A stretch of 64,000 nt of DNA from an uncultured bacterium (GCA_900547945.1 URIT01000002.1:28503-92502), one strand, 5' to 3'; positions 24,617 to 64,000 are shown, numbered from the stretch's first letter. Translations and numbers: made by a program. The notes: generated by a model from the letters alone, not told the origin.

Positions 24617-27757
<3,141 letters not shown>

Positions 27758-42470: not shown

Positions 42471-42534
42471 CCGCCCTTCAAGCCGGGCCCGCCGCCCGAT
42501 CGGCCTGGGTGCGGCCGCCTACGGCGCGGCGGGT

Positions 42535-43944
42535 CTAAAGGAAGGGGTCGGATCTAAAGGAAAGGGTTCTGATGGAATCCTTGGGGCAGTCGATCAGCGC
42601 TTGGGGGTAGTGGGGGTTCTCGGTAAAGATGACGCGCGAGCCCGGCTCGACGTGAAAAGTGGGGAACAGCAGGGAATGCCCGCTCGAATCCATTGGATAG
42701 TTGAGCTTGAACAACGCGCGCGTGAAGTCGTTTGTCGGCACTGTCCCGGACGTGACGAATGTGGCGTTGGAGACGAGATAGACATCGTGCCCCACGATGA
42801 GAGGGACCTTCAGCGCACCCGGTCCGACAACGACAAAGGGCCGGCGGAAATAGCCAAAGGAGAGACGCGCCTCTCCCGGCTTACGGTAGTGTTCCGGCCC
42901 CGGATTCGAGACGAGAGGCCCTGGGTACGTGTAATGCCCTTCTTTCGGCAGGGTTACCCACGTTCCTTTGAGTTCTCGTTCCATGCCCTCCATCCGGATC
43001 ACACATCGGTAGTCGGCGTCTACGGGCAACGCTTCCCATTTCGGGCGGCAGCAGGCGAAGATGCCGGCGACGAGGGCGAGGCACGCGCCGACCGCCGCCA
43101 GAACGCGCGCGCACGAAAGCGCCCCCAGCACGGCCAGCGCGCGCCGGACGGTGGCGAGCGAGTGGCAGCGCAGCGTCGGCAGCGAGCTGGTCATGTCCAA
43201 GATGAGGATGCGCCAGGCAAACGGCGGACGCCCGTCGAAAAGCGCGGCGAAGAGCGCGCCGAGGGCGTGGATGTCAGCGGCGGGCGAGATGTCCTTCCCC
43301 TGCATCTGCTCGGGCGCGGCGAAGCCGGGCGTGCCCAGTACGCGGCCGATGCCGCCCGCAAGCGTCGGGTTGCCGCGCCCGAGGCCGTGGATGAAACCGG
43401 AAAGCGCACCGTCCGAGAGGTGGGCGATGCCGAGGTCGGCGAGGACGTAGCGTCCGTCGGGCGCGACCAGCACGTTGTCCGGCTTGAGGTCGCGGTGGAC
43501 GATGCCGTGCGCGTGGAGGCAGGCGAGGGCGCGGCAGAGATCCCGCCCCAACGCGGCGATGGAACGAGGAGACAGACTTTCCGGCAACGGTCGCAGCAGC
43601 TCCATCGTGAAGTAGGGTTCGCCGCGAAACGTTCCGGACGCAAATGCGCGCATGAGGTTGGGATGACGGAACGCGCCCAGCAGGCGGGCCTCGGCGCGGA
43701 AGCGCTCGCGCGCCTGTCCGGGCTCGACGCCGGCGCGCGGTCGGAAGAGCTTGAGCGCGAGGTCCTGCCCGGACGCCTCGTCGTGGACGCGCCAGACGTC
43801 GCCCGTCGCGCCGCGCCCGATCAGGGCGACCGCAACGAGGCCGCCGATGCGCTCGCCGGGGCGGAGGGCCGACGCGGCGACATCCGCCGAGACGTCGGCG
43901 GCGTCGGACGAGGCGAGATAGCGCCGGATATCGTCGGCGTTCAT
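42535..43944 (-). CDS. Ser/Thr protein kinase with TM segment and about 170-aa extracytoplasmic C-terminal domain
   Basis: GRGATGDVW, LALKLF, HGIVHRDLKPDNVL, DLGIA, GTPGFAAPE, then a hydrophobic segment ALAVLGALSCARVLAAVGACLALVAGIFA. ATGA overlap with the ECF sigma gene. Confidence 0.9.
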   Translation of the reverse strand: MNADDIRRYLASSDAADVSADVAASALRPGERIGGLVAVALIGRGATGDVWRVHDEASGQDLALKLFRPRAGVEPGQARERFRAEARLLGAFRHPNLMRAFASGTFRGEPYFTMELLRPLPESLSPRSIAALGRDLCRALACLHAHGIVHRDLKPDNVLVAPDGRYVLADLGIAHLSDGALSGFIHGLGRGNPTLAGGIGRVLGTPGFAAPEQMQGKDISPAADIHALGALFAALFDGRPPFAWRILILDMTSSLPTLRCHSLATVRRALAVLGALSCARVLAAVGACLALVAGIFACCRPKWEALPVDADYRCVIRMEGMERELKGTWVTLPKEGHYTYPGPLVSNPGPEHYRKPGEARLSFGYFRRPFVVVGPGALKVPLIVGHDVYLVSNATFVTSGTVPTNDFTRALFKLNYPMDSSGHSLLFPTFHVEPGSRVIFTENPHYPQALIDCPKDSIRTLSFRSDPFL

Positions 43945-44510
43945 CGCGGCGCGGCCCCGTCTGCGATTTCGAGGCTGCGCACCTCGGCGGCCAGGCGTTC
44001 CGTCAGGCGGTTCTTGATCTGGTAGAGTGCGTTCACGGAGAGGCCGAGATCGGCGGCAACGCGCGCGGCCGGCTCGCCCAGGATGGCGTAGCGGCGGAAG
44101 GCGATCTTGGAGGACGAGCGGACGGACGGGTCGGCGAGGACGCGGCGGAGGGCCATCGCGCAGAGTTCGCGCCGCCAGTCGGCGTCGGACATTTCGAGCG
44201 TGAAGCTCGGCTCGACGGCGGCGGACGGCCCGGCGGCGGGGTCGGCGGCGAACGCCGCGTGGCGGTTCTGCGCGCGTGTCCTCCGACGCAGGAGGTCGTA
44301 GGCCTTGTTCTGCGCGATTTTGAGGACGAACGAGTGGAATGCGCCCTTCCCCGCACGGTCATGGCGGTAGGCGGGCATGATGGCGACGAGCGCGACCAGC
44401 GTCTCGTGGATGACGTCCTCGTACGGCGCGTAGTCGCGGTAGAACCGCGCCCAGCGCGTCTCGTCGTTCGCGGCAAGTCCCGCGATCAAGGTCTCTGTTG
44501 TCTGAAGCAT
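43941..44510 (-). CDS. ECF-type sigma-70 family RNA polymerase sigma factor
   Basis: Region-2-like ...FYRDYAPYEDVIHETLVALV...FHSFVLKIAQNKAYDLLRR and region-4 HTH ...ILGEPAARVAADLGLSVNALYQIKNRL. ATG at 44508-44510 chosen over the TTG at 44528. Confidence 0.85.
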   Translation of the reverse strand: MLQTTETLIAGLAANDETRWARFYRDYAPYEDVIHETLVALVAIMPAYRHDRAGKGAFHSFVLKIAQNKAYDLLRRRTRAQNRHAAFAADPAAGPSAAVEPSFTLEMSDADWRRELCAMALRRVLADPSVRSSSKIAFRRYAILGEPAARVAADLGLSVNALYQIKNRLTERLAAEVRSLEIADGAAPR

Positions 44511-44921: not shown

Positions 44922-45386
44922 ATGGACTCAAGTATGCAAAAGCTCGTCGAGACTGTTCGTGCTTCTCGTAGCAAACAGGCGATTGCCCTTTGCGGCGCGG
45001 CTAACACAGGGAAAACGCATGTGCTCAAGAAACTTTCAAACTGGTTTCGAGATCGGGATGCAATCATCATTGCAATGAAAGACATGGGGAATGGACGCGA
45101 TGAACTTTGGGCATTTGGCTACCAAGATGTGTGCATTGGAATTGCCACGGGCGGAGACAATCAGGAGTTGATAACGGCTGCATTCACATTTTTTGCCGCA
45201 AATGCGTGCGACATCGTCTATTGTTCCACACGATATCGCGCCGATTCTTCATCGTGGACGGAGTTCCAGAAAGAATGTTCTAGCAGAGGCTTTACCATTC
45301 ATTGGACGAGTTCAATGGACATTCCTGAGGAATGCCATCTTGCCATTAATCAAGCCAGGGCCGCGCAACTCGCAGCCATGCTTTGA
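44922..45386 (+). CDS. Small stand-alone P-loop NTPase-like protein (154 aa), family unknown
   Basis: Walker A CGAANTGKTH. Possible Walker-B-like hhhhD (DAIIIAMKD). Start at MDSSMQ (44922); the upstream part of ORF 44760.. lies in the leader. Confidence 0.6.
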   Translation: MDSSMQKLVETVRASRSKQAIALCGAANTGKTHVLKKLSNWFRDRDAIIIAMKDMGNGRDELWAFGYQDVCIGIATGGDNQELITAAFTFFAANACDIVYCSTRYRADSSSWTEFQKECSSRGFTIHWTSSMDIPEECHLAINQARAAQLAAML

Positions 45387-45411
45387 TCAGAAAACCAAAA
45401 AGGAGCAGAAA

Positions 45412-47178
45412 ATGAAGACAAAGCAGATCCTTGCATTCGTAATCATGCTCGAATGTAGTGCGAGCTATGCATTCTTGCCAAATTTAATTCAAAACGTGAT
45501 TCAGTCCGCAGAGGACTCTCTCGTGACTGTTCGGAAGAGTGACTGTCAGCAAAAAACGCCCCAGTCAACAGAGGCTAATCAAGAAAACGGGCATACGGTT
45601 GACGAAAGAACACGAAGAAAAGATCAGACGCAGAATAATGGCGAAAGAATGCCTGATTCAGAACCCTCATGTGAACAGCAAGGAGGGAAATCAATAGAGA
45701 CAAACGAAAGATTTGTAAAACAGCGCGAAGAACACGCAGGAGAAGAAAAGAAGCAGGAGGAGGATACGAGGAAGGAGGAGGAGAATAGCCAACATCAGGC
45801 GTATCAGGAAGAATTAGCCAAGAACCGCGACCGCATTGAGGCAATGGCGTCACTCACGAAGGAGCTGTCGGCGTATCTGCAAGGAGAGTTTACCAACAAG
45901 CTTTACTTCGTTTGCAAAATACACGATCAGTTATACGACATCACCAAGACAACGGAACAAAAAGATTTCCTCTGTAAGAAAGAATGGGATCAGTGGGGCA
46001 TGGGTCCGCTTGCCAGATCTGAAAAGCTATTGCCCCCATCAGACTACTTGATCCGCGGCATATTGGAGGAAAAAACAAAAAAAGCCACCGAGTACCAGGG
46101 CATCAACGTTTCGATCAATAAGTCCAAAGAAGGGAAATCACTTGAGGAAGATTACCCTGGCACATTCAGAGTCAATGATATCACCTTTCGGCTTTGGAAC
46201 GGACAATACTACTCCCTCACATTCCAGTTCAACGATTTGTCTCAGGCAAGCGAAATGATCGGAAAAGTGTCAATCAAAACAAAGGAACTCCTCAAGGAAT
46301 GGCTTGATGAACAGTATATGACAGCCTGTGCGTTCGGCGAAACTAATGTGTGGGGACAGTATTTTTCACAGACGCACAAGAAGGAAACGGCTCCCGTAAA
46401 GATTCTGAAGGAAATTGCATTGGGAGATACCTTGATTGAGGTCTTGAAGAAAATCAGCCAGATAGATCCTTCCTTTAAGGTGGCCTATCATAATGGGACG
46501 CCGGATCCTTCTTTTACGGTGTCATCGCACAATAAAAAAGTCCAAGTACTCCCTCCCATGGCCTATGGCCGCCAGTATGATTTCACACTTAAAAATCACA
46601 CCTTAACGTTCGGCTTCGGCGGCTTTGACAATGAGAGCGCCGTGAATCTGCTCTGGGCAAAAGTCGCGTTCAATACGGGATCCGTTGAAGTTGAGACGCT
46701 TGAAGAACTTCTGACGAAACGGTTCCCCGCCGGTTTTGCCCTTTCCAAGAAAACCAAGAAAGTCGGCATGCACTGGAAAGATCCGGAGAATACGCCTCAA
46801 TTCATCGGGGAACAATATGCCGACGCGGCGCTCGTCATTGGGATGTCCGCCATGACACGTAAAGAAGGCGGCGAATTACTCGCGTCGGAGCGAGAGAAAT
46901 ACGCAAAAGCATTAAAGACGAAGGAAGAAATCGAGAAGAAGTACATGGAGCCCACTTATGTTTATTATATAGGAACCAACCACAGTGGCTATGATGTTGT
47001 GGTAAACACCTTGGAGAAAGTCCCCGGAATCGCATCCGACTATATCGTGTTCGACTTGGATACGCATAACCTACAGATCGATCTTTATAACAGAAATCTG
47101 CGGAAAAAAAGGGATGCGGCCAAGAAAGAAGAGCAGGAAAAGGCTAAAAAGGATGCAGAGGCCGCACTTGACATTTAA
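45412..47178 (+). CDS. Secreted hypothetical protein (588 aa) with charged low-complexity linker and C-terminal Lys/Glu-rich tail
   Basis: AAGGAG 8 nt upstream of ATG 45412. Signal-like MKTKQILAFVIMLECSASYA. No recognisable family. Confidence 0.65.
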   Translation: MKTKQILAFVIMLECSASYAFLPNLIQNVIQSAEDSLVTVRKSDCQQKTPQSTEANQENGHTVDERTRRKDQTQNNGERMPDSEPSCEQQGGKSIETNERFVKQREEHAGEEKKQEEDTRKEEENSQHQAYQEELAKNRDRIEAMASLTKELSAYLQGEFTNKLYFVCKIHDQLYDITKTTEQKDFLCKKEWDQWGMGPLARSEKLLPPSDYLIRGILEEKTKKATEYQGINVSINKSKEGKSLEEDYPGTFRVNDITFRLWNGQYYSLTFQFNDLSQASEMIGKVSIKTKELLKEWLDEQYMTACAFGETNVWGQYFSQTHKKETAPVKILKEIALGDTLIEVLKKISQIDPSFKVAYHNGTPDPSFTVSSHNKKVQVLPPMAYGRQYDFTLKNHTLTFGFGGFDNESAVNLLWAKVAFNTGSVEVETLEELLTKRFPAGFALSKKTKKVGMHWKDPENTPQFIGEQYADAALVIGMSAMTRKEGGELLASEREKYAKALKTKEEIEKKYMEPTYVYYIGTNHSGYDVVVNTLEKVPGIASDYIVFDLDTHNLQIDLYNRNLRKKRDAAKKEEQEKAKKDAEAALDI

Positions 47179-47220: not shown

Positions 47221-48072
47221 ATGGTCACGCTCAATAACGTATTCGGAAACGAGAACATTCTCAAGAAGGAAACCAAGGGATGCTTCACGGTCTTGGAACA
47301 CAAGTCCGACCGCAGTGTCAGCGCCAAAACCGCAATGCAGGAATACTTCAAGGGGAAAATGGGACTCAATCGCCGTCAGCTGCTCTGTAACCTCGACGGC
47401 AATGCCGTCAAGACCCAGGCGGGGGCAATGCAGTGGACGGCCGGTGCCGTCGAATCGGTGACGGGCATCACTGGCGCAGGACAGTTCGCCAAGAATATCC
47501 TGAAGGCAGCTGTCACCAAGGAATCTGCCGTGAAGCCCGTCTATCGCGGGAAAGGGCAGCTGATGCTGGAACCGACCTACCGTTACATTCTGCTGGAGGA
47601 TGTCGCATCGTGGGGGGAGAAGGGAATCGTTCTCACGGACGGGCTGTTCCTCGCATGCGATGAGACGATCGTCGAGAAGGTCATCATGCGCAAGAATCTC
47701 TCTTCCCTGTTCGGCGGCAAGGGGCTGTTCAATCTGTCGTTGGTCGGGCAAGGGTTCTGTGCGCTTGAAAGCTACGTGCCTCGCGAAGAACTGTATGAAT
47801 TCGACATTAAGGACGACACGGTTAAGATTGACGGCAACATGGCCGTCTGCTGGTCAGGCTCTTTGGATTTCACGGTGGAACGTTCATCGAAATCCCTGTT
47901 TGGTTCAATGATGAACGGAGAGGGTCTCGTCAATGTGTATCGTGGAACAGGCAAGATTTTGATGGCGCCTACGCTTCCAGGAGCTGAAGATGAAGGTTCC
48001 AACGCGCCCAAACGGAATGACTCCGTAGCCCAGAAAGGCTTCTTCCAATCGCTCATGAAATCGGCCAATTGA
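47221..48072 (+). CDS. AIM24-family (DUF124) protein
   Basis: ...RRQLLCNLDGNAVKTQAGAMQWTAG..., GKGQLMLEPT, GLFNLSLVGQGFCALES, GEGLVNVYRGTGKILMAP match the AIM24/TIGR00266 pattern. Confidence 0.85.
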   Translation: MVTLNNVFGNENILKKETKGCFTVLEHKSDRSVSAKTAMQEYFKGKMGLNRRQLLCNLDGNAVKTQAGAMQWTAGAVESVTGITGAGQFAKNILKAAVTKESAVKPVYRGKGQLMLEPTYRYILLEDVASWGEKGIVLTDGLFLACDETIVEKVIMRKNLSSLFGGKGLFNLSLVGQGFCALESYVPREELYEFDIKDDTVKIDGNMAVCWSGSLDFTVERSSKSLFGSMMNGEGLVNVYRGTGKILMAPTLPGAEDEGSNAPKRNDSVAQKGFFQSLMKSAN

Positions 48073-48171
48073 CATTCAGCTTGTCCCTACGTCAAAAGGC
48101 GACCGCCTTCTCCGCCTCTTGACGAAAAGTAAAAGACGAGAAGGCAAAGACATACAAAAAGGAGAATGCGA

Positions 48172-50808
48172 ATGAAAAAACTCATGTTCGTATTGGGCTT
48201 ACCAATACTTATCGCAGGATGCGCGTCGCCGCTTCGGATCCAGACGACGGATTTGAGCGGCGGGGTTCGGGAAATCGAGGTGAAGAACCTCAGCGGCGAG
48301 GTGATCGAGGTCAACGACGGCTTCAGGAAAAAGCTCAACGAGCGGAAAGCGGCGCTGGAGGGAGAAATAAAGAACGTTCTTGAGGGCAAGGTCAAGAGCG
48401 GTGATTTCAAGAAGGACTATTCCATACCAGTGGAGGGAATCGTCGCAAAAGGCGGAAAGGAACCGCTGACCGAAGAGGAGATGGGCGTCTTTCGCGCGGT
48501 CGGCGAGACGTTGACACGTGAGTATGTGAAGCAAATCATCTACCCCGCCTGGGCAAAGAAAATCATCACTCCCAACGTATCTTCAGCCAAGGCAAGACTC
48601 GCGGACGGCGACTACGCGCAGGCCCGTGAAATCATGTGGGACGCGGAGAAAACCGGCGTCGCGGAGGTGGATGAGCTTGTCCGCAAGCTGGGCAACAGGT
48701 TCCTGAACAGGGAAGTGAACCCCGCCCAGTGGCTTTTGCTGGAGAAAGAGCTCAAGACCGCCTTTGATGCGGCGATGGCGGCAAAGGACTATGCGGGCGC
48801 AAGAAAGTCAATCGGCGACGCCAAGGGGATCCGCACGTTCTCCCAAAAGCTCGAGGCCGCACCGTCGCCGATGGCGGACGAGACGGAAGACACCCTGAAG
48901 GTCGCCGATGGCGTCACTTCGGGACTGCTGGGGACGGTGGCCGTGAACACCCGCCTTGAGGCATTCAAGGGGAAACTCCTGGACGAGATCGCGGCGGCGG
49001 AGAAGGCGGAGCTTGACGCCAAGATGCAGGCGATGCTCGACGAGCTGGGCAAGAAGGTGGCGTCGCTGGTCGAAGAGGAGAAGTTCGGCGAGGCGCGCGA
49101 CGCGGTCGCCGCCGTCGCTCAGGTGAAAGACGGCGAATGGAACGAGAAGGTCAACGCGGCCAAGAAGAAGCTGCTGGACGATGTCGCAAAGGCCGAGAAG
49201 GCCGCGCGTGACGCAAAGACGCAGCGACTCCTGGACGAATTCACGGCCAAGGTCATCGCTCTCGTCGAGGAGGGGAAGTTCGGCGAAGCGCGCGACGCCA
49301 TTCGCGACATCGCATTGGTGGACAACGACGAATGGGACGCCAAGATCTACGCCGTCCGCATCGGCCTGATGAACTCGGTCGTCAATCCGCGCCAGCTCAA
49401 GCACCTGAAGGCCGAGGCCGCAAAGACCATTGACGGCCTTGTCGCCGAGAAGAAATACGCCGAAGCCGCGAAGTTCATCGACGACTATCCGTACGTACAT
49501 GACACGTTTGACCAGATAAAGGCGTCGTTTGGCAGAATCGAGAAGGCGATGAAGGCGCTGAAGCTCGAAGACGGGCAGGCTGCCGAATACGTCGCCTCGC
49601 GCCTGGCGACCGTCCGCGAGATGCTGGAGAAGCGGCTTGGGAAATATGACGGCAACGAGGACTACTCGGAACTTGAACGCGCGCTGAGCGAACTTGAGAA
49701 GGGGTATGTCGGGCAGCATTACGACGACACGGCGGCGACGGGCGTAACCAACGCCATCAAGGGCGAAATCGTCGCGATGGTCGATGCGAAATATGCCCCG
49801 CTCACGACTTGGGAAATGAACGAGGCGCTGCGGAGGTTCCTTGAGGCGAAACGGCCCCAAATGCCCGCCGACGACCAGGGGGAGGGACTCCCCGCGCCGA
49901 CATTGGGCGTCATTTCCGATGAGGTCGACTACGATTCGCAGATCGCGATGGCGGAGGCGGCGATCGCCGAACCGTCGGCCGTCTACGGGCTTGCGGCCGT
50001 ACTCGGCGACTACGCCCGGATCATGCGCCGCTGCAAGGCCGGGAACGCCGTCGCCCCCGAAGAGGCGAACACCATGCTCGTCGCCTCCGTCTTCCTCAAC
50101 CAGCCGGAGATGTTCAAGCTCGCCTTGACGCTCAAGGCCGACGTCAACACGGCGGCGCGGCGTGACCCGCTCGCGCGCGCGCCGATCCTGCTTGCGGCAC
50201 AGCTCGGGCGGACAGCGTTCGTCAAGCTCGTCCGGGACGCGAACGGCAAGCCTGACGTGATCGACGCGAACGGCAACACGCTTCTGCACTATGCAACGGA
50301 GCGCGGCAATCTTGCGCTTGCCAGGGCCGTTGTCCCCGCCGTCAAGATCGACGCGGCCAACAAGGCCGGCGAGACGGCGCTGTTCGTGGCCGTGCGGCGC
50401 AATCAGCTTGCGGCCGTAAAAGCCATTCTCCGGCTTGCCGGCGACGCGGCCGCGCAGAAGACGTACGTGGCGATCGCAAACGCCGACGGCCAGAATGCCT
50501 TTGACGTCGCATGTGTGTCGAATGCTCACATGCTGCTCGACACGCTCGCCGCCGCCGGCGCCGAATACGACGAACGGCATCTCGCCGCGGCGCTTGGTGC
50601 GGATTGCATCGGCGTGGCGCAGTGGCTCGTTGAAAAGGGCCTGGACGTCAATGCCGACATCGTGCAGCGTCTAGCGGCCAAGGTCAGGCCAGTGCCGCCG
50701 ACACTGCCATCCGCCACCTATTCCTACCTTGTGGCTGAAGGCTTGAAGGTCGAGGCGGAAGAGGCACCGTCCAAGGACACGAAGCCTTCGGAGAAAGCGG
50801 CCGAATAA
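48172..50808 (+). CDS. Large lipoprotein with internal 65-aa tandem duplication and C-terminal ankyrin repeats
   Basis: Lipobox LIAGC. Repeats ...MLDELGKKVASLVEEEKFGEARDAV... / ...LLDEFTAKVIALVEEGKFGEARDAI... (195 nt apart). ANK-like GNTLLHYATERGNLALARAVV, GETALFVAVRRNQLAAVKAIL, GQNAFDVACVSNAHMLLDTLAAAGA. Confidence 0.8.
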   Translation: MKKLMFVLGLPILIAGCASPLRIQTTDLSGGVREIEVKNLSGEVIEVNDGFRKKLNERKAALEGEIKNVLEGKVKSGDFKKDYSIPVEGIVAKGGKEPLTEEEMGVFRAVGETLTREYVKQIIYPAWAKKIITPNVSSAKARLADGDYAQAREIMWDAEKTGVAEVDELVRKLGNRFLNREVNPAQWLLLEKELKTAFDAAMAAKDYAGARKSIGDAKGIRTFSQKLEAAPSPMADETEDTLKVADGVTSGLLGTVAVNTRLEAFKGKLLDEIAAAEKAELDAKMQAMLDELGKKVASLVEEEKFGEARDAVAAVAQVKDGEWNEKVNAAKKKLLDDVAKAEKAARDAKTQRLLDEFTAKVIALVEEGKFGEARDAIRDIALVDNDEWDAKIYAVRIGLMNSVVNPRQLKHLKAEAAKTIDGLVAEKKYAEAAKFIDDYPYVHDTFDQIKASFGRIEKAMKALKLEDGQAAEYVASRLATVREMLEKRLGKYDGNEDYSELERALSELEKGYVGQHYDDTAATGVTNAIKGEIVAMVDAKYAPLTTWEMNEALRRFLEAKRPQMPADDQGEGLPAPTLGVISDEVDYDSQIAMAEAAIAEPSAVYGLAAVLGDYARIMRRCKAGNAVAPEEANTMLVASVFLNQPEMFKLALTLKADVNTAARRDPLARAPILLAAQLGRTAFVKLVRDANGKPDVIDANGNTLLHYATERGNLALARAVVPAVKIDAANKAGETALFVAVRRNQLAAVKAILRLAGDAAAQKTYVAIANADGQNAFDVACVSNAHMLLDTLAAAGAEYDERHLAAALGADCIGVAQWLVEKGLDVNADIVQRLAAKVRPVPPTLPSATYSYLVAEGLKVEAEEAPSKDTKPSEKAAE

Positions 50809-54331: not shown

Positions 54332-55023
54332 GTGGACAAGGTCTCCGAGTTCAGGGCCGCCGTCGCCGCGAAGGACTGCGAGTCCGGGGAATCCGAGCGC
54401 AACGCCGGGAACCATCCGAAGCGCATCGTGACGCTCTTCGGGGAGCTCCCGCCCATCAGGCGCACCTACTGGTACGACGCGGACGAACGCAGGGGGCACT
54501 ACCCCTTCGACGACAGGCTCGGGCTCGTCGGAAGGTACACGCCAGCCGCCTGCGCCGACATGATCCGCAGCGCGGTCGACCGCCCCTTCGCCGACGCCGC
54601 GAGGGACTTCTCAGCGAAGCACGCGTTCCGCGTCTCCGCCGACACCGTGCGGGAGATCGTCGGGCTGCACTACGATGCCATCCGCGACTTCCCGAAGGAC
54701 GAAAGCCACGCGAAGGAGGATGCCGGGGGAGCGGCCCCGCTCGTCTGCGTCATGGCCAACGGAACGGGCATCCCGCTGCGGAAGGAATGCCTCAAGGGCG
54801 CCAAGGGCAAGGACGGGCGCGCGAAGACGCGCGAGGTCAAGGCCGCCGCGATCTTCAGGGCGTCGACGACGTCGGACAGCGCTTCAAGCAGTCCGGCAAG
54901 ATCTGGTCGCTGAAAGGAGCGAAGGCGCTGCTGCCGCTGCGCACCCTCCACAAGTCGAACCGCCTCGAGGAGTTCTTCGCCTACCTCGTCAGAGACCTAA
55001 GGCATGTCGACTGCGCGGCATGA
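54332..55023 (+). pseudogene. ISKra4-like transposase remnant (5'-truncated, large internal deletion with frame change)
   Basis: ...RIVTLFGELPPIRRTYWYDADERRGHYPFDDRLGL...VCVMANGTGIPLRKECLKGAKGKDGRAKTREVKAAAIF in one frame, then RFKQSGKIWSLKGAKALLPLRTLHKSNRLEEFF in another. The junction is near 54856-54875. Confidence 0.6.
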
Positions 55024-55377
55024 GCCTTGCGTTCTCTGCGGCTAAACCCTCTGACTCTGCATAAATATCTCGTTGCACTCGCTGTTCGATTCTAAGCGTG
55101 TGGCTCAAAATGAAGCGTGAGCGGGACGGATGCGAAAGCGTGGCCTACGATGAATGGGACGCGCCATGCGCGGGACCGTTGTGGAAGTCTGCACGAGGAG
55201 GAAAGTAATAAAGAAACATTGCCCGCCAACCTTGATGCATCGCCAAGAATTATGAGATAATATGCCTCAAAGATTCGCGTATCGACCCGACCAAGGGCGG
55301 ATATTGGGAGGTAGGCGAATGACAGGCGATGAGAAAAGCACGAGGGCAAGAGGTTTGGTATAGTACATCCCACCAGA

Positions 55378-56514
55378 ATGAACGATAAAACGACAGATTG
55401 CTCGCAACTTGAGCGCGGTGTCATAGACCCTGATTTCACACGGGATATCCTTGAATCGGAGATCCCGAGGGATGTTTTGCAGGTTTTGCTTGCGGATCGG
55501 ACGACCGGCAAGAACATCATGTGGATGACCGACGGATACGCACATCTGAAATCCGTGTTCGATGTCAAGATGGGAATCCATGACGAAATCAATGCAGATG
55601 TGATTTCCCGTCCAGGAAACAAGATTGTCCGTCCTCGTGTTGACAAGAGCAAAGAAGAACAACGCAAACGTGTCGTTGGCAAGGCGGAGGTGTTCACGCC
55701 GTCATGGATCTGCAATGCCATGAACAACCTCATGGATGCCGCATGGTTCGAGCGAAAGAAATCCCCGTTCACGATTGAGGGCAACAAGTCGTGGCGGGCA
55801 ACAAAGAAGCTCGTGACATTCCCCAAGAAGCTCAAGAAAACCTGGCTTGATTTCGTCACCGAAGTGCGCCTTGAGATCACATGTGGCGAGGCTCCGTTTC
55901 TTGCAAGTCGATACGATACCACAACAGGCGAGGTGATTCCGATTCCCGAACGCATCGGCATACTTGACCGCAAGCTGCGCATTGTGACGGAGAACGCAGG
56001 CGCGCAACCTGACGAATGGCTGAAATATGCAAAAATGGCCCTCAAGGCCATTCTGGGCTTTGAGTGGCAGGGCGACAACCTGCTCATCGCACGCGAGAAT
56101 GTTCTTTGGACCATATTGGAGTATTACAAGTATTATTGTTCGCCAACGCCAATAAGCCACGATGACCTTCTGGAGCTTGCAAACATCGTGAGTTGGAACA
56201 TCTGGCAGATGGACGGGTTGAAGTTCGTTGTCCCGCTAAGTTGCCATGATGAACCCATCGTCCCCAAGACGCCTAAAGCCGTGCAGCCGGATTTGTTTGC
56301 CACCGAAGAAAAAGGATTGTCGGAACAAACGCTACCGTTGACGAAGCCCTGTCCTGGCTGCGCGAAGAAACACATCCTTGACGGCGCGGAATTTCACAAC
56401 GGCACCTATTGCAAGATCATGGATTGGGGAACCGGCGAGCCGCATGAATTCGTCTGGCATTATCTGCATCGGGATCGGGAATGCGTGGAAAAGGAAAGAA
56501 GGAAACCGCAATGA
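55378..56514 (+). CDS. N6-adenine-methyltransferase-fold protein lacking the (D/N)PP(Y/F/W) catalytic motif; C-terminal CxxC region
   Basis: Motif-X-like GKAEVFTPSWICNAMNNLMD, motif-I-like RLEITCGEAPFL, motif-III-like ALKAILGFEWQGDNLLIAREN, but SWNIWQ where NPPY is expected. ATGA overlap with the next gene. Confidence 0.6.
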   Translation: MNDKTTDCSQLERGVIDPDFTRDILESEIPRDVLQVLLADRTTGKNIMWMTDGYAHLKSVFDVKMGIHDEINADVISRPGNKIVRPRVDKSKEEQRKRVVGKAEVFTPSWICNAMNNLMDAAWFERKKSPFTIEGNKSWRATKKLVTFPKKLKKTWLDFVTEVRLEITCGEAPFLASRYDTTTGEVIPIPERIGILDRKLRIVTENAGAQPDEWLKYAKMALKAILGFEWQGDNLLIARENVLWTILEYYKYYCSPTPISHDDLLELANIVSWNIWQMDGLKFVVPLSCHDEPIVPKTPKAVQPDLFATEEKGLSEQTLPLTKPCPGCAKKHILDGAEFHNGTYCKIMDWGTGEPHEFVWHYLHRDRECVEKERRKPQ

Positions 56515-59500
56515 CAGACACGGCCATTCTGGAAGAGTTGATCGTCGGCCGAGTCGAGCCGCGCATCTATGCCTTTACCACCAACACCGTGCCCAACTAC
56601 TTGAAGGTCGGCGACACCTACCGTCCCGTGGATGCCAGGTTGGACGAGTGGCGTGAGCATTTTCCTCATTTGAAGCGAGAGTTCGACGATTCCGCCAAGA
56701 TCGGCGATGTCTTCTTCAGGGATTATTCCGTTCATGTCTATTTGGAGGAAACCGCGAAGCGTCCGCGACTTGCCAAGGGGAGATTCCCTGATGTCTATTA
56801 TTCAAATGAGTTCTTTGAAGGAGCCACCAAGGGTGATGTCATGGCGGCAATTGGTGACATACGCCATGATTTCGAAACAAAGGGACAGCGGTATCAGTTC
56901 TACAGCGTGGCGGAAGGACTCCCCACAGGCGTGAAATTCCCTTCAACGGGCATGTGGACGCTGCGCCCCAACCAAGACGCCGCCGTAAGGAGATTTCAGG
57001 CGGCTATTGCGGCCGGCCGGAAAAACCTGCTCATGTACGCCGTCATGCGCTTCGGCAAGTCGTTTACGTCCATGTGCTGCGCCAAGACAATGAACGACGG
57101 CAACGGGGCGAACATCGTTCTTGTCTTGTCCGCGAAGGCAGATGTCTGCGGCGAATGGAAGAAGACCGTCGAGAGTGCCGAAAACTTCCGAAACGACTAT
57201 GAATTCCTTTCCGGTAAAGACCTCAAGGCAAACGACAGAATCGTTTCAGATTTGCGGCGCAAGGGAAAAAAGGTCGTCATATTCCTCACGCTTCAGGATT
57301 TGCAGACCACCACGATCAAGAAGAGGCACCGGGATCTGTTCAACAGGAAGATCGACCTCTTGATCGTAGATGAGACCCATTACGGCGCGCGTGCCGGCAA
57401 ATACGGAGAGATCCTTCGCAAGACGAAGGGCTACATGGCGGACAAGTCGTCCGGCAAGGATGGCGAGGACAGCAAGAACGCCGAAAACATGGACGCGGCC
57501 ATCAAGGCGTTCAAGGTGAACGTGACGCTTCACCTTTCGGGAACGCCTTACCGAATCCTGATGGGCAGTGAGTTTGACAAGAAGGACATCATCGCGTTCT
57601 GTCCGTTCACCGACATTGCCAACGAACAGAAAAAGTGGAACGACGAACACATACTTGACGATCAATACCGCGAATGGGACAATCCGTATTTCGGCTTCCC
57701 GGAGATGATCCGCTTTGCCTTCCATCCAAGCAGATCCGCCCGCATGCGGCTTGAGGCATTGCGCAAGGGCGGGGCGACATACGCGTTCTCGGCGTTCTTC
57801 GCGCCCGAAAGCATCGTGCCGCAAGCGGACGGCAGCCACAGGAGGTTCAAGTTCGAAAAGGAGATACGTGAACTCTTCCAGGTGATTGACGGCAGCAAGG
57901 AAGACGACGAGCTGCTGGGATTCCTTGACTACGACAAGGTCAAGAACGGCATGATGTGCCGTCACCTGGTCTGCGTGCTCCCCTATTGCGCCTCGTGCGA
58001 CGCGCTTGCCGCGCTGATTGCCCGCGAGAGCAAGAATGGAGCCTTCAAGAACCTTGCCGAGTATCAGATCATCAACATCGCCGGACACGACATGCCGCCC
58101 GAGTACGCGAATGTCGAGGAAGTCAAGAAGACGATTCGCGAATGCGAGCAGGAGAGCAAGAAGACCCTAACGCTCACCGTGAACCGCATGTTGACCGGCT
58201 CAACCGTCCCCGAATGGGACACGATGCTCTACTTCAAGGACACGTCTTCTCCGCAGGAATACGATCAGGCGATTTTCCGTCTGCAGAACCAGTTTGTGAC
58301 GGAGATGAAAACGGCCCTTCCCAACGGTCGCGAAGACGTGATCAAGTTCAACAAGAAACCCCAGACGATTCTTGTGGATTTCGACCCGGCGCGTCTGTTT
58401 GAGATGCAGGAGGAGAAGTCCAAGATATACAATGCCAACGAGAACAAGGCCGGCAACACGAAACTGAAAGCGCGCATTTCCGCCGAACTGGCCGTTTCGC
58501 CTATCGTGTGCGTCACCGCCGGGAAGATTCGCCGCGTCGATGCTGAGGACGTAATGAAGGCCGTTTCGGACTATTCGCGCAATCGCGGTGTTACGGACGA
58601 AGCGGCGAAAATGCCAGTCGATGTTGCGGCGGCGGCGAAATCCAAGGAATTGCTTGCGGCCATCATGAAGGAGAGCCCTCTTGGCAGCAAGGACGGCCTT
58701 ACACTCGATCCGCACAAGGGTGAGGGCGAAGACTTGGAGGATATGGCTGCAACCATAAAGAAGGCAGCGAACGGTGCGGCGCCAACTGGAAACGCCACGC
58801 CGACAACTTCAGACGAGAAGAAGGCGTTGGCAGAATTCGAGGACAAGTTCCGGGCGTATTATGCACGACTGCTCTTCTTCGCATTTCTCACGAAAAGCAA
58901 GGTCTGTTCGGTCGAGGACATCATTGCCTGCATGGACGAAGGCGACAATGCTCGGATAGCAACGAATCTTGAGATCACAAAGCCTGCTCTCAAGGCCATC
59001 CAGAAACATTTCAACAAGTTCATCCTCTCCGAATGGGACTACAAGATCGACAACCTGAACACGCTCTCGCGTGACGAATCGCTCGCGCCGCTGGAGCGCG
59101 CGCAGACGGCCATTCGCAAGTTCGACCGCCTTGGCGTTTCCGAGATCATGACGCCGGAGAAGATCGCGGACGACATGGTCGCGCTCTTCCCTGCCGCCGA
59201 ACTGAAGCGCATCGCGCAAAGCGGCGAGAAGATTCTCGACATCGCCAGCAAGGCGGGAGAATTCGCGATTGCGCTCTACAAGCGCTACAAGAAGATCGAC
59301 CCGAATATCGACGTCAGCAATCTGATCCTTTCAATCTCGACGTCGTCCCATGCCTACGAATTCACGCGCAACGTGTACGCGGCGCTTGGCCTGAACCTTG
59401 ACAACATCGCCGAGAAATTCACCTCCTATGATTTGTTGAAGGTCAAGACCGCAGACGGTGAGATCGACTACGAACGAATCAAACTCCTTCTCACCCAGAA

Positions 59501-60560
59501 AAAACCTTTCAGGAAAATCACCATGAACGACAAAGTATCTGCCAGAAGTAAACACTTCACAATCGCTGGGGCAGTGGGCAATCCGCCGTATCAGGAGATT
59601 AAAGGAGAGGAGAAACTAGGTTTTGCCTCTGCAATTTATCCATACTTTATGAATGCCGCTTTTGATTTGTCGGAAGGGCATACTTCAATGATTGTTCCAA
59701 GTCGATGGATTATGAAGACCGGGCAGGGCATCAATGAGGCTTGGGCAGATGCTCTAATTCGGTCGAACCGCTTTCTATCGGTACACGATTTCCATGACGC
59801 GAAGAGTTGTTTTCCCGGAGTTGAGATCAAAGGCGGCGTGATGTATTTTGATTACAAGAAAGACTATGAGGGTAAATGTAGTTATGTTAATAACGTAGGA
59901 GAGCGTTCGACTGAGACTTTTGACTTTATTGACGCGATGGGATGTGGGGTAGTAATTCGAGATGAAATAGCGAGGTCAATATTGGGTAAAGTAGTATCGT
60001 TGGAAGGTGAATACTTTAGGGACGAATCATTTGCGAAATACGTTGGACCCACTCATTTGTTTGACAAGGGTGGGCAACTTGGCTCTAGTTGGTCAGGTTT
60101 TCAGAAGAAAAAGGATTCACAACATAGCATTAAGTATTATCTCAACAAGCGGGTAGTGGAATGTGGCTTCGCTTGGATTAAGCCGACAGATGTGCCAAAA
60201 GGCCATGATTCTATTCCAGTACATAAGGTATACGTGCCTGAAGCCTATGGTGCAGGAGAGGGATTCCCGCATCAAATCCTCGGTGTCCCATTTTATGGCG
60301 AACCAAATAGTGTCTGCTCTCAGACGTATCTTTGTATAGGTTATGATCCATCGGTTAGAAAGTTTTCTAAGGAAGAGTGTAAAAATATTGTATCTTACAT
60401 CAAGACGAGATTTCTTCGTTATCTTGTTTCCTTTTCGTTATCTTGTTTCCTTGAAGAAGAACACCCAACATTCTTTTGCTGCGGTATATCAATTCGTCCC
60501 CTTGCAAGACTTCACATCTGCATCCGATATCGACTGGTCGCGTCCAGTCCCCGAAATTGA
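56511..60560 (+). CDS. T5orf172 (GIY-YIG-like) / SF2 helicase / Eco57I-type N6-adenine methyltransferase fusion, C-terminus frameshifted by a 19-bp duplication
   Basis: N-terminus PRIYAFTTNTVPNYLKVGDTYRPVDARLDEW...NEFFEG (T5orf172 pattern). Helicase motifs MRFGKSFT, LLIVDETHYG, HLSGTPY, LTGSTVPEWDT, QAIFRLQN. MTase motifs GVSEIMTPEKIADDMV, ILDIASKAGEF, GNPPYQ (59577-59594). The last 36 codons are out-of-frame junk. Confidence 0.8.
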   Translation: MTDTAILEELIVGRVEPRIYAFTTNTVPNYLKVGDTYRPVDARLDEWREHFPHLKREFDDSAKIGDVFFRDYSVHVYLEETAKRPRLAKGRFPDVYYSNEFFEGATKGDVMAAIGDIRHDFETKGQRYQFYSVAEGLPTGVKFPSTGMWTLRPNQDAAVRRFQAAIAAGRKNLLMYAVMRFGKSFTSMCCAKTMNDGNGANIVLVLSAKADVCGEWKKTVESAENFRNDYEFLSGKDLKANDRIVSDLRRKGKKVVIFLTLQDLQTTTIKKRHRDLFNRKIDLLIVDETHYGARAGKYGEILRKTKGYMADKSSGKDGEDSKNAENMDAAIKAFKVNVTLHLSGTPYRILMGSEFDKKDIIAFCPFTDIANEQKKWNDEHILDDQYREWDNPYFGFPEMIRFAFHPSRSARMRLEALRKGGATYAFSAFFAPESIVPQADGSHRRFKFEKEIRELFQVIDGSKEDDELLGFLDYDKVKNGMMCRHLVCVLPYCASCDALAALIARESKNGAFKNLAEYQIINIAGHDMPPEYANVEEVKKTIRECEQESKKTLTLTVNRMLTGSTVPEWDTMLYFKDTSSPQEYDQAIFRLQNQFVTEMKTALPNGREDVIKFNKKPQTILVDFDPARLFEMQEEKSKIYNANENKAGNTKLKARISAELAVSPIVCVTAGKIRRVDAEDVMKAVSDYSRNRGVTDEAAKMPVDVAAAAKSKELLAAIMKESPLGSKDGLTLDPHKGEGEDLEDMAATIKKAANGAAPTGNATPTTSDEKKALAEFEDKFRAYYARLLFFAFLTKSKVCSVEDIIACMDEGDNARIATNLEITKPALKAIQKHFNKFILSEWDYKIDNLNTLSRDESLAPLERAQTAIRKFDRLGVSEIMTPEKIADDMVALFPAAELKRIAQSGEKILDIASKAGEFAIALYKRYKKIDPNIDVSNLILSISTSSHAYEFTRNVYAALGLNLDNIAEKFTSYDLLKVKTADGEIDYERIKLLLTQKKPFRKITMNDKVSARSKHFTIAGAVGNPPYQEIKGEEKLGFASAIYPYFMNAAFDLSEGHTSMIVPSRWIMKTGQGINEAWADALIRSNRFLSVHDFHDAKSCFPGVEIKGGVMYFDYKKDYEGKCSYVNNVGERSTETFDFIDAMGCGVVIRDEIARSILGKVVSLEGEYFRDESFAKYVGPTHLFDKGGQLGSSWSGFQKKKDSQHSIKYYLNKRVVECGFAWIKPTDVPKGHDSIPVHKVYVPEAYGAGEGFPHQILGVPFYGEPNSVCSQTYLCIGYDPSVRKFSKEECKNIVSYIKTRFLRYLVSFSLSCFLEEEHPTFFCCGISIRPLARLHICIRYRLVASSPRN
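60415..60452. repeat. Perfect 19-bp tandem duplication TTCGTTATCTTGTTTCCTT x2 inside the helicase-methyltransferase gene
   Basis: 60415-60433 and 60434-60452 are identical. Removing one copy joins frame 0 to the frame of ORF 60343..60639. Confidence 0.95.
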
Positions 60561-60639
60561 AGCACAGTTGTACGCGAAATACGGCATTACCACGTCCGAG
60601 CAGAAGTTCATCGAATCCCTCATCAAGCCGATGGAGTGA
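60453..60639 (+). pseudogene. Displaced authentic C-terminal tail of the helicase-methyltransferase (now in +1 frame)
   Basis: LKKNTQHSFAAVYQFVPLQDFTSASDIDWSRPVPEIEAQLYAKYGITTSEQKFIESLIKPME resembles the conserved tail of Eco57I-type methylase-domain proteins. Confidence 0.8.
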
Positions 60640-60650
60640 GGAGCCTTCAA

Positions 60651-61754
60651 ATGATTATTGGTGAAGCACGAGAGAAGAAGCCGAAAAATAGTACCGTTGT
60701 CACATTTCTCATCGGAAATGGTTTCGATATTGGGCTTGGTTTAAAAACCCGATATGCCGACTTTGTAGCTACATATTTAAAGTGCCCCTCGAAAACAGAG
60801 GTTATAGTCAAACTGAAAAAGGCGATCAATCAGAATATCGACCTTTGGGGAGATGCGGAATTGGCATTCGGGAAACTGCCGTTTTCAACTTTTGGCAAAG
60901 AATCTTATCCTGTTGTTAAAGAATGTGTAACGGATTTTAGTGACACACTTTCTGTATATCTTCAAAATGAGGAACGGCGCTTTCAAGTTCCTGCTGACGA
61001 GCTTAAGGTCGCTTTCGGTACTTTATTGTGTTCGTATTATCAAAGGCTTGGGGCGTACCCTAAACGTAATGAGTTAAAGCGCTTGAAGCGATTCAATCGG
61101 CTGAAGGTTAATGTGATTAACTTTAATTACACAGAGACAATCGACAAGATGTTGCCTCCATCTGGGACTATGACTTTGCCTGGGTGGGGAAAGGTAGATG
61201 TCCAGATCAATGAGGTGTGTCATATTCATGGGGCACTTTCTGTTGGGACATCCAGATCATTTGGGGTAAATATGTTGTCGCAAATAGAGGACGCTAAACT
61301 TATTCCCGAAGCAAGAATGTTGCTTGTTAAACCAGATGTTGATCGTATGGCGCGTTGGGGGTTAGAGCCAATGGCTAAAGAGATGATAGACGAGAGCGAC
61401 ACTGTTGTCCTGTTTGGTTTGTCATTAGGAAGTACTGACCAACTTTGGTGGAACTACTTGCTGGATTATATCCAATACAAGACGGAGCATAGACTTTGTT
61501 TAATGCAATATGTAAAGGAGGCACGTGGCACACGATTGCCTGGCGAAGAAGGATTGTGGGCGCAAAAAGAATGCCGAAAGTTCTATAACGCAGTAGACAC
61601 AGAGAAGATGAAATATGGCAACACTACCGACTTGGATCGACGAATCGATGTTTCTATACGTGGCCCACAGCTTGATCCCGATGGGCATGAAACATTTTGC
61701 GATCCATTTCAACTGTTTTGGTTTGGCAAGAAATTGGTTGTTGATGGATCGTAA
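60651..61754 (+). CDS. AbiH-like abortive-infection protein
   Basis: VTFLIGNGFDIGLGLKTRYADF, VINFNYTETI, VCHIHGAL, VVLFGLSLGSTDQLWWNYL follow the AbiH (PF14253) signature order. GAGGAG lies 7 nt upstream of the ATG. Confidence 0.85.
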   Translation: MIIGEAREKKPKNSTVVTFLIGNGFDIGLGLKTRYADFVATYLKCPSKTEVIVKLKKAINQNIDLWGDAELAFGKLPFSTFGKESYPVVKECVTDFSDTLSVYLQNEERRFQVPADELKVAFGTLLCSYYQRLGAYPKRNELKRLKRFNRLKVNVINFNYTETIDKMLPPSGTMTLPGWGKVDVQINEVCHIHGALSVGTSRSFGVNMLSQIEDAKLIPEARMLLVKPDVDRMARWGLEPMAKEMIDESDTVVLFGLSLGSTDQLWWNYLLDYIQYKTEHRLCLMQYVKEARGTRLPGEEGLWAQKECRKFYNAVDTEKMKYGNTTDLDRRIDVSIRGPQLDPDGHETFCDPFQLFWFGKKLVVDGS

Positions 61755-61826
61755 CCATCGGTCTTTTAATAACCGAATAGAAATTAATCTAATTCATGAT
61801 TAGGACAACGCAGAAAGGAGCAAACA

Positions 61827-62006
61827 ATGGATAACTCAATAGTTAATGATGTAGTTAAGGCATTGATTTCATTTTTCCTTGGCGGAGGAGTGGGCTGCTT
61901 GATAGGTATCAAAATTGGTGTCAATAAGACAATTAAGCAACATCAAAAAAGTGGCGATCATTCAACCCTGGCGCAAATTGGAGTTGTTGAAAATGGGGAA
62001 CATTAA
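61827..62006 (+). CDS. 59-aa ORF with one TM helix; probably the detached N-terminus of the following gene
   Basis: AAAGGAG 6 nt upstream. MDNSIVNDVVKALISFFLGGGVGCLIGIKIGVNKTIKQHQKSGDHSTLAQIGVVENGEH. Below the 60-aa cutoff of the ORF track. Confidence 0.45.
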   Translation: MDNSIVNDVVKALISFFLGGGVGCLIGIKIGVNKTIKQHQKSGDHSTLAQIGVVENGEH

Positions 62007-63120
62007 GCAAGTTCAAAAAGCAGGAGATGGGTCTTCTGTTGCTCAAATTGGGATGATTAACAACTATGGTATTGATGAAAAGCGAGTCCGTGAAATATGC
62101 GACGAGAAGATCCAATATGCAATTCATGATCTAACATCAGAAGCCTGTACTAAAGCAACTCAAAAAGTTTATGATTTCATAACACTTCTTCTCGCGAAGA
62201 TTTCAGAGCGGAAGATGGATTTGTCCGCATTCGCGGAGCCAAGCTTTCAAAGAGAGTTGATAAAGGCACAGACATTTTCAGCAGTATCAGACCGCAAAAC
62301 GGATGTAGAAATGCTCTCGGAATTATTGTTAGCGCGAATGAATGGTAAGTTGAAGCGCAAGACCAAGACTGGTATTAGTCGTGCAATGGAGGTCGTTGCA
62401 GAACTTGACGATGATGAGCTACTTGGCCTTACAGTTGTTTTCTTAGTTCTATCAACATCTCCTACTGCCCAGCTAGGAGCCGAATCATGTTTGGGATTAG
62501 ATGCCCTAGAACGGGTTTTCTCTAAGTTTCCTCTTGATGAACTTCCAAATGTGACAGCGTGGATTGAAAATCTGAATATCTTAGATGCCGTCATAATAAG
62601 CCCATTTGGTGGCTTCTCTAAGTTCCATGATATTCTTGAGTCAAAAATGAGTGGTTATGTTTGCGTTGGAATAGGGAAAGATGCTCCAGAACTATTGAAA
62701 GCAAAGTCTTTGTTGCGAACAGCTTTGCTGTCGGATTCGTTTTTGTGTGAAAATGAGTTTCTTGAAGGGTATTATCGATTACCTGTTGTTAATATTTCAG
62801 ATGTTAGGACATTGTCTTTGCACAAAATGTTTCAGGATTCATCCACAGGAAAAATAATTAATATCCCAGTGCCCATGACGGAAGATGTTATTAGAACGTT
62901 GTCAGATATTTCCGCATTGTATAATAAGGATGCTAAATTGATGTCTGAAGTGAAACAAAAATTTGAAGCAAAGTTAAAGGCTTATCCTACATTGTATAAG
63001 GTGCAACAATGGTTTGATAATTTGAAGATGTCGTTTAATATTACAAAGGTAGGAAAGGCGCTGGCGTATGTAAACGGAAAACGATATGCACCAGAATTGC
63101 CAGAACTGTCGTTGGAGTAA
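61993..63120 (+). CDS. Hypothetical protein (375 aa from the internal ATG), family not recognised
   Basis: MGNIKQVQKAGDGSSVAQIGMINNYG... repeats the motif that ends the preceding small ORF. A+T-rich, coding-like. Confidence 0.6.
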   Translation: MGNIKQVQKAGDGSSVAQIGMINNYGIDEKRVREICDEKIQYAIHDLTSEACTKATQKVYDFITLLLAKISERKMDLSAFAEPSFQRELIKAQTFSAVSDRKTDVEMLSELLLARMNGKLKRKTKTGISRAMEVVAELDDDELLGLTVVFLVLSTSPTAQLGAESCLGLDALERVFSKFPLDELPNVTAWIENLNILDAVIISPFGGFSKFHDILESKMSGYVCVGIGKDAPELLKAKSLLRTALLSDSFLCENEFLEGYYRLPVVNISDVRTLSLHKMFQDSSTGKIINIPVPMTEDVIRTLSDISALYNKDAKLMSEVKQKFEAKLKAYPTLYKVQQWFDNLKMSFNITKVGKALAYVNGKRYAPELPELSLE

Positions 63121-63418: not shown

Positions 63419-64000
63419 ATGAAAAGTCGTAAGGTGAACCCAGGTAACGAGAAGTCAATTCCCGGAATAGCAGATGAAATGGCACGCACGGCGGTCAAGT
63501 CCTTGTGCAAGGACGGGAAGCTGACGCCGCAGGGGCGGAGTCTTGCGAAGTTAATGGATCGGATAATGCCCGCTGAGAAGGTGGATGAGTGGGGCTGGAA
63601 TCTCTCGCGCAAGGAACGGGCGGCGATCAAGCGGCGGGCGGCGGAGAAAAGGGCGGCGGATGAGGCGCGGCGAGCCGAGGCGCGCGCCCGCGCAGCGTAC
63701 AGGCGGCGGCTCAAGGCGCTCGAGAATGATGGTGAAATCAATGGCCACATTCAGATGAAATGGGCGTTTATGGAGACTTTCAGGGAATTGAAGCGGCGTG
63801 GTTTTTCAATCCGGCGGATGAATGCGATGAGACGCGCCGTCGAGGCGCGGATTTGCGAGTGGGACGGGCTTTGCCATAGGGACTATGTGGAATATTTTGT
63901 TTACGACTATTACCGCGAATGCGGGAAGCTGTTTGTTGAACTGTTCCCCAAAGAAAAGAAGGCAAAGGCAAGAAGGATGTGGGCACACGCATTGGAACCA
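63419..64000 (+). CDS. Hypothetical protein, 5' part only (open to the right edge)
   Basis: Own translation from ATG 63419 has no stop for 194 codons: MKSRKVNPGNEKSIPGIADEMARTAVKSLCKDGKLTPQGRSLAKLMDRIM...RRAAEKRAADEARRAEARARAAYRRRLKALEN... Not in the track because it is unterminated. Confidence 0.5.
   Translation, partial: MKSRKVNPGNEKSIPGIADEMARTAVKSLCKDGKLTPQGRSLAKLMDRIMPAEKVDEWGWNLSRKERAAIKRRAAEKRAADEARRAEARARAAYRRRLKALENDGEINGHIQMKWAFMETFRELKRRGFSIRRMNAMRRAVEARICEWDGLCHRDYVEYFVYDYYRECGKLFVELFPKEKKAKARRMWAHALEP

Follow-up and report, generated by a model that had tools for sequence, protein, structure and literature searches.

Does this uncultured bacterium encode a motor-driven restriction enzyme whose nuclease is of the GIY-YIG type? 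The question is raised by a 64,000-nucleotide (nt) stretch of its DNA (GCA_900547945.1 URIT01000002.1:28503-92502), hereafter the window, in which all positions are counted. A large fusion gene at 56511-60639 on the + strand joins a nuclease-like domain to a superfamily 2 (SF2) helicase-like ATPase and an N6-adenine methylase, and directly follows a smaller, methylase-like gene. An initial annotation, made from the DNA alone, had read the large gene as an unusual single-chain variant of the Type ISP restriction enzymes, with a T5orf172/GIY-YIG-type head in place of their Mrr-family nuclease. We consider it probable that the two genes form an ATP-dependent, site-specific restriction-modification cassette, which was acquired horizontally and has been inactivated here by a 19-nt tandem duplication. 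Five parts of this reading are observed directly, namely the domain content, the conservation of catalytic motifs in three enzymatic modules, a hypervariable C-terminal region, an obligate partner gene and the lesion itself. The features of the large gene are as follows (aa, amino acids of the repaired protein).

56511-60639, + strand: large fusion gene, 1369 aa when repaired; as it stands 1349 aa, with a stop at 60560
56565-56834, + strand: T5orf172/GIY-YIG-type nuclease domain, aa 19-108 (Pfam PF10544)
56958-58550, + strand: SF2 helicase-like ATPase motor, aa 150-680 (Pfam ResIII, weak SWI2_SNF2)
57045-57068, + strand: Walker A motif MRFGKSFT, with GKS at aa 182-184
57369-57380, + strand: DETH, aa 287-290
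57537-57548, + strand: SGTP, aa 343-346
58176-58205, + strand: motor motif V
58266-58289, + strand: motor motif VI, QAIFRLQN, aa 586-593
59136-59813, + strand: gamma-type N6-adenine methylase core, aa 876-1101 (Pfam Eco57I)
59151-59156, + strand: TP of methylase motif X, aa 881-882
59232-59267, + strand: methylase motif I, ILDIASKAGEFA, aa 908-919
59580-59591, + strand: methylase NPPY, aa 1024-1027
59601-60380, + strand: hypervariable region after NPPY, presumed target-recognition domain, aa 1031-1290
60415-60433 and 60434-60452, + strand: perfect 19-nt tandem duplication, TTCGTTATCTTGTTTCCTT twice, after which (residue 1307) the frame shifts
60453-60639, + strand: conserved C-terminal tail, now out of frame, native aa 1308-1369, with FVPLQDF at 60493-60513

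The region's longest open reading frame (ORF) spans 56481-60560 (+), and the end of the protein lies in a second ORF, 60343-60639, in a different frame. Translation probably starts at the ATG at 56511, which has a purine-rich stretch just before it and overlaps, as ATGA, the TGA of the ORF at 55378-56514. A promoter and terminator scan of 54800-61200 found nothing above the shuffled background. The domain order and coordinates of the initial annotation were confirmed by Pfam matches to T5orf172, ResIII and Eco57I, and every motif that it named is present, with core residues that are invariant in 32 homologues (49-83% identity). This holds for the motor and the methylase as well as for the N-terminal motifs IYAF (19-22), LKVGDT (31-36), RLDEW (43-47) and NEFF (99-102).

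Judged by its sequence, the large gene is a member of a known and widespread two-gene family that is filed as Type IIG, and is not a rare one-off. The REBASE-derived PADLOC profile PDLC03626 (REase_MTase_IIG, named “Type IIG restriction enzyme-methyltransferase”) aligns aa 5-1368 to positions 10-1359 of its 1359, with 1219 bits and E = 0, and this end-to-end match means that the exact architecture is already catalogued. A protein search gave over 100 homologues of full length, with 48-97% identity, and at least 515 loci in many phyla turned up when 185,579 species were scanned, each represented by one genome. These include Kiritimatiellae/Lentisphaerota, Bacteroidota (Rikenella microfusus DSM 15922, Prevotella, Alistipes), Bacillota (Veillonella, Blautia, Anaerococcus, Peptostreptococcus), Campylobacterota, Alphaproteobacteria, Spirochaetota and others. 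Cultured strains with an orthologue include R. microfusus DSM 15922 (NZ_KE386488.1, about 1,688,001-1,699,954), Veillonella sp. DNF00869, Blautia sp. OF03-15BH, Peptostreptococcus sp. MV1 and Anaerococcus vaginalis. The closest relatives of the cassette are in Kiritimatiellae metagenome-assembled genomes from rumen and gut, and the family is frequent among gut and rumen bacteria of many phyla. Such enzymes have also been mentioned in print. Morgan et al. 2009 reported homologues of MmeI that have a helicase and a GIY-YIG protein on their flanks, and predicted that such a cluster acts as a Type I-like restriction system which modifies a single strand; Sisakova et al. 2012 noted Type ISP relatives with other nucleases, “e.g. 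GIY-YIG”. The profile match, the number of loci and these two papers speak against the “unusual variant” of the initial annotation. That annotation had allowed that the architecture might already be both catalogued and characterised; the former is the case, and in the literature searched we found passing mentions and no characterised fused member.

The N-terminal domain is supported as T5orf172/GIY-YIG-type by profile methods, as the initial annotation had proposed. With aa 1-150 scanned alone, PF10544 was matched with an E-value of 1.2e-4 and 23 bits, above the curated cut-off of 20, and T5orf172 was not listed by Pfam when the full-length protein was scanned. Because this match was single and thin, the N-termini of relatives were checked as well. 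T5orf172 was matched by 4 of 15 close relatives (best E 6.3e-7) and by 5 of 20 more divergent N-termini (best E 7.2e-8), the latter found by scanning 1.84 billion cluster representatives with HMMER; one more of the divergent set matched MUG113, a member of the same GIY-YIG clan. The residues of a GIY-YIG-type site (Y20, K32-x-G34-x-T36, R43, H75 and E100) are invariant in three alignments (A1, A4 and A5), in which the most divergent N-termini are 27-46% identical to their reference sequence. Comparison of the N-terminal profile with the N-terminus of a Mycolicibacterium plasmid protein, which NCBI names “GIY-YIG nuclease family protein” and which itself clears the T5orf172 cut-off, gave an hhalign probability of 92-93%. 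The same profile gave an hhalign probability of 3% with the catalytic domain of I-TevI, for which an approximate query sequence was used, and a PHROGs search with the N-termini gave no useful match. No PD-(D/E)xK family was reported for the large protein by Pfam, NCBIfam or PADLOC.

The remaining modules are matched more strongly. In the frame-repaired protein, ResIII is found at aa 150-347 (E 3.4e-13) and Eco57I (PF07669) at aa 964-1101 (E 4.5e-12, 46.8 bits against a cut-off of 25.3), and NCBIfam gives a weak match to TIGR02987 at aa 881-1034. A single NPPY is present in each of the 113 full-length homologues (113/113). Mean identity to these homologues is 0.60-0.69 in the nuclease, motor and methylase, falls to 0.35 at aa 1031-1290 and is 0.55 at aa 1291-1369; the low value after NPPY fits a presumed target-recognition domain that is diversifying. 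The PADLOC profile MTase_II PDLC03375, which is common to stand-alone REBASE methylases, covers aa 1019-1368 and is matched as far as its final residue position. HMMER searches of PDB chains with the full-length protein, the full-length and N-terminal profiles, and the helicase and methylase regions found no relative: the full-length profile had 0 matches at E<=1, and the separate regions had only unrelated chance matches at E<=10.

The frame break implied by the initial annotation was traced to the 19-nt duplication at 60415-60452, which is the sole cause of the frameshift. The two copies lie head to tail with TTTC(T/C)TT microhomology on their flanks, and removal of one copy restores an unbroken protein of 1369 aa. 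The best public homologue (P0001, 97% identity) also has exactly 1369 aa; its contig, L006, shares 96.8% DNA identity with window positions 55052-60640 and has the 19-mer in single copy, as does the metagenome contig L089. In Joint Genome Institute (JGI) metagenome contigs the duplication junction had 0 matches and the one-copy sequence had 1. In the unrepaired product, the last 62 native residues are exchanged for 42 out-of-frame residues. The lost tail includes V1323, P1324, F1328, L1347, E1357, I1365, K1366, P1367 and M1368, which are invariant or nearly so in the 32-homologue alignment. We conclude that the large gene has probably been knocked out in this genome. As the 62 conserved residues belong to the methylase and recognition module, restriction and modification were probably lost together, and their simultaneous loss would be tolerable for the cell.

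Two other readings of the duplication were weighed. The gene could be intact or functional, either because the duplication is an artefact of assembly or consensus calling or because the altered 1349-aa protein still works. Elsewhere the 4.1-kb frame is free of stops, and the ORF of the coupled partner is unbroken, as this reading would expect, but a perfect duplication with microhomology resembles replication slippage and not a typical homopolymer or consensus error, and the lost tail, besides its conserved residues, falls within the profile of the stand-alone REBASE methylases. We regard a working gene as improbable. It is more improbable by far that the duplication is a reversible on/off switch for phase variation. 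A tandem duplication can be undone through slippage or recombination, and phase-variable Type IIG enzymes are known from the literature, but the latter switch by simple repeats, whereas this is a single two-copy event with no repeat tract. L006 and L089, the only other public copies seen, are of the one-copy form, the JGI collection lacks the junction, and the reading frame is unbroken in each of the other 113 full-length homologues.

The second gene of the cassette has the following features.

55378-56514, + strand: partner gene, methylase-like, 378 aa (PADLOC PDLC03390 MTase_II, 334 bits)
55684-55707, + strand: motif X, AEVFTPSW
55870-55902, + strand: motif-I-like loop, LEITCGEAPFL
56191-56217, + strand: SWNIWQMDG, at the aligned place of NPPY; SWNxWQMDG is invariant in homologues
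56350-56412, + strand: C-terminal CPGC...HNGTYC element

A homologue of the partner lies upstream of the large gene and on the same strand in all 75 related loci with enough upstream DNA (75/75); 80 related reference-genome loci were considered, and the 5 excluded have <=165 bp of upstream DNA. In 72 of these loci, no more than ~250 bp separates its end from the large gene. The partner is conserved jointly with the large protein, being 77% identical beside a 77%-identical large protein and 45% identical beside a 50%-identical one, and in L006 it likewise has 378 aa. The “single-chain” enzyme of the initial annotation therefore gives way to a two-gene system, since a translationally coupled partner gene, with its ATGA overlap, is always present. 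In three loci (L035, L040 and L078) the gap between partner and large gene is 1-1.5 kb, which suggests an extra inserted gene. In some relatives (L001 4364-6004 and L002 593-2260) the partner has 546-555 aa, with a ~170-aa N-terminal extension that is found neither here nor in L003.

What the partner does is the most intriguing loose end of this locus. It has no Pfam or NCBIfam match, and neither the protein nor its profile has a relative among PDB chains by HMMER. Its AlphaFold 2 (AF2) model, with a predicted local distance difference test (pLDDT) score of 87, has ~three core strands followed by a zinc-ribbon-like CxxC...H...C element, and so appears to be about half of a class-I methylase fold with a zinc-ribbon-like end. 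In a Foldseek search with this model all matches had E>=0.2, the top ones being the methylase modules of PglX/BrxX, LlaGI, DrdV, LlaBIII and MmeI; the recurrence of these proteins among such weak matches is a hint and falls short of a finding. A split methylase, formed by the partner as N-terminal half and the large protein as C-terminal half, was considered and rejected because the large protein and the split methylase of the Mycolicibacterium plasmid each have motifs X, I and IV of their own.

One possibility is that the partner is an active second DNA methylase that acts on the other strand of an asymmetric site, as M.Eco57I does beside R.Eco57I, so that a fused restriction-modification enzyme would be accompanied by a separate methylase in the classical manner. 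The catalogues name it accordingly (MTase_II in PADLOC, “restriction endonuclease subunit M” as the NCBI family name), motif X and the motif-I-like loop are kept, the latter close to that of M.TaqI, and the best Foldseek matches, though weak, are methylase modules. A Bacillus cereus plasmid offers a further point in its favour. There the start of a 1437-aa fused homologue is overlapped by a 253-aa “N-6 DNA methylase”, which aligns to the partner profile with a probability of 95% and matches Pfam N6_Mtase, but only at positions 20-117 of 311, the first third. This B. cereus protein lacks NPPY. The motif [DNS]PP[YFWH] is found in 0 of 120 partner homologues, the invariant SWNxWQMDG stands at the aligned place, the small partners of distant relatives lack NPPY too, the partner itself has no Pfam match, and its confident model covers only around half of the fold. 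An active second methylase thus seems unlikely to us. By analogy, the most likely role of the partner is in assembly or regulation, as a non-catalytic subunit, and its catalogue label of “methylase” is probably wrong. Such a label could mislead assignments of methylomes to genes.

For the steps by which the intact cassette might work, Type ISP, Type III and MmeI-type enzymes serve as the analogy. The methylase and the variable C-terminal domain would recognise a short, probably asymmetric site and methylate one adenine with S-adenosylmethionine, thereby marking host DNA. At an unmethylated site, the SF2 motor would hydrolyse ATP and translocate or loop double-stranded DNA, and the T5orf172/GIY-YIG domain would cut, nicking one strand each time. 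Since this domain would have a single active site and so make single-strand nicks, a double-strand break would need two enzyme molecules to meet. The partner, which has the S-adenosylmethionine-binding half of a methylase fold and no catalytic NPPY, would serve as a non-catalytic subunit that may bind S-adenosylmethionine. More tentatively, and with doubt prevailing, the family could be a mechanistically distinct and unclassified type of ATP-dependent restriction-modification system that works neither as Type ISP nor as Type IIG, in which an SF2-driven GIY-YIG-type nuclease is joined by an obligate, catalytically dead half-methylase that senses S-adenosylmethionine or assembles the complex, and licenses cutting.

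Alternatively, the cassette could be a non-cutting system, BREX-like (bacteriophage exclusion) or epigenetic, in which T5orf172 is a DNA-binding or regulatory domain and any defence proceeds without cleavage. T5orf172 is predicted to bind DNA and is barely characterised, DnmA is an orphan regulator in Bacillus subtilis despite its neighbours YeeB and YeeC, and the BREX protein PglX/BrxX is among the weak structural neighbours of the partner. However, the GIY-YIG active-site residues are invariant even at 27-46% identity, no BREX profile was matched in PADLOC, and the variability of the C-terminal region fits the turnover of specificity that is seen in restriction. We consider a non-cutting system very unlikely.

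Several points nevertheless weigh against an ATP-dependent restriction-modification cassette inactivated by the duplication. The AF2 model of the N-terminal 150 aa, built from a 15-sequence alignment, is poor (mean pLDDT 63, with the hairpin region <50), and a Foldseek search of PDB with it gave nothing at E<=1, the best E being 1.5, and no GIY-YIG structure; the support for a GIY-YIG fold consequently comes from sequence profiles only. T5orf172 is little studied, and the literature also describes it as a DNA-binding domain. The methylase has a variant motif I, with K at the place of the first G. In the literature searched, no member of the family has been shown to cleave or methylate DNA, and the DnmA-YeeB-YeeC cluster, compared below, gave no protection in B. 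subtilis. The role given to the partner is a guess. Finally, the duplication is known from the assembly and may be absent from the organism.

The surroundings suggest that the cassette is part of an island, at least 20 kb long and acquired horizontally, that continues beyond the end of the window. GC content is 0.61-0.72 (about 0.68) up to ~44 kb and 0.42-0.59 thereafter, and the window is chromosomal, with ClpB and SecA in its first 44 kb. The neighbouring features are as follows.

9299-11824, - strand: ClpB
24617-27757, - strand: SecA
37786-37860, - strand: tRNA-Thr
39263-41107, - strand: NCBIfam “MAG1210 family protein” (587 bits), near the GC transition
42430-44025 and 45193-47178: large ORFs without a Pfam match
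47221-48072, + strand: AIM24-family gene, in the island
48166-50808, + strand: 880-aa ankyrin-repeat protein, in the island
54332-54913, + strand: short ORF left of the cassette, matching UPF0236 (ISLre2-type transposase) at positions 53-138 of 400 with E 3.3e-5, below the Pfam cut-off
60636-63120: AbiH (Pfam E 3e-29), followed by an LPO_1073/Vpar_1526-family gene

The ORF at 54332-54913 may be a transposase remnant, and the real start of AbiH is probably the ATG at 60652. Identity to L006 stops exactly at the stop codon of the cassette, and the genes that follow differ: in place of AbiH and its neighbour, L006 (5593-10462) has genes for proteins of 1307 and 318 aa, neither with a Pfam match. 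Homology returns at 63512-63706, which is 81% identical to L006 10645-10839. On this evidence of sequence identity that ends at the stop codon and of different genes beyond it, the two-gene cassette is a mobile unit. A cassette 50% identical to it is found in a mobilisable element (L003/L004, 1-16029) with a Mob_Pre relaxase, DUF3987 and zinc-ribbon/DUF6371, and is followed there by an SLFN/AlbA_2 ATPase, SIR2_2 with DUF87, and Vsr, in a compact defence island. The neighbourhoods of the cassettes are typical of defence-island behaviour. What the window holds is a common mobile defence cassette, present as a damaged copy in a defence-type island, and it is of little significance by itself. The family, which has no solved or sequence-related structure and no biochemistry in the literature searched, would provide the first example of a motor-driven restriction enzyme whose nuclease is GIY-YIG-type.

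Among described systems, PDLC03626 and its companion PDLC03390 represent the family of this cassette, and comparison with the profiles gave no difference. The class under which they are filed fits less well. Classical Type IIG enzymes such as Eco57I and MmeI lack a helicase motor and rely on PD-(D/E)xK nucleases, so that functionally the family sits oddly in Type IIG.

The DnmA(YeeA)-YeeB-YeeC cluster, compared by description, has the same three activities in one conserved cluster and is reported to be active against some phages in Vibrio crassostreae. Its activities are on separate polypeptides in the order methylase, helicase, nuclease, with T5orf172 at the C-terminus of YeeC; its methylase is MmeI-type, whereas that of the cassette is Eco57I-type, and no small NPPY-less partner has been described for it.

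On the Mycolicibacterium vanbaalenii plasmid, a homologous system is split into a 234-aa “type III restriction endonuclease subunit M”, a 537-aa Eco57I methylase and the 868-aa “GIY-YIG nuclease family protein”, which has T5orf172 and the helicase in one protein. The homologous parts share ~26% identity over 84% of the query, and the methylase has the same K-containing motif I, NPPYQ and (I/V)(T/V)PSRW. The nuclease-helicase and methylase-recognition parts are separate genes in reversed order. Here too a small NPPY-less partner, the 234-aa “subunit M”, lies upstream, and its link to the present partner is weak (hhalign probability 59%).

The parallel with the Type ISP enzymes LlaGI and LlaBIII, which the initial annotation had drawn, holds for the layout and fails for kinship. 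The order of nuclease, SF2 ATPase, gamma-type N6-adenine methylase and C-terminal recognition domain is the same, and by analogy both would probably methylate one strand. No sequence relative of the large protein emerged from phmmer and profile hmmsearch of all PDB chains, which presumably include both LlaGI and LlaBIII (4XQK and 5FFJ among them). The nuclease of LlaGI and LlaBIII is an Mrr-type PD-(D/E)xK domain and all functions are in one polypeptide, whereas the cassette has a T5orf172/GIY-YIG-type domain, a methylase of the Eco57I Pfam family and an obligate second gene. As far as sequence can tell, the likeness to Type ISP is one of design and not of demonstrable family membership.

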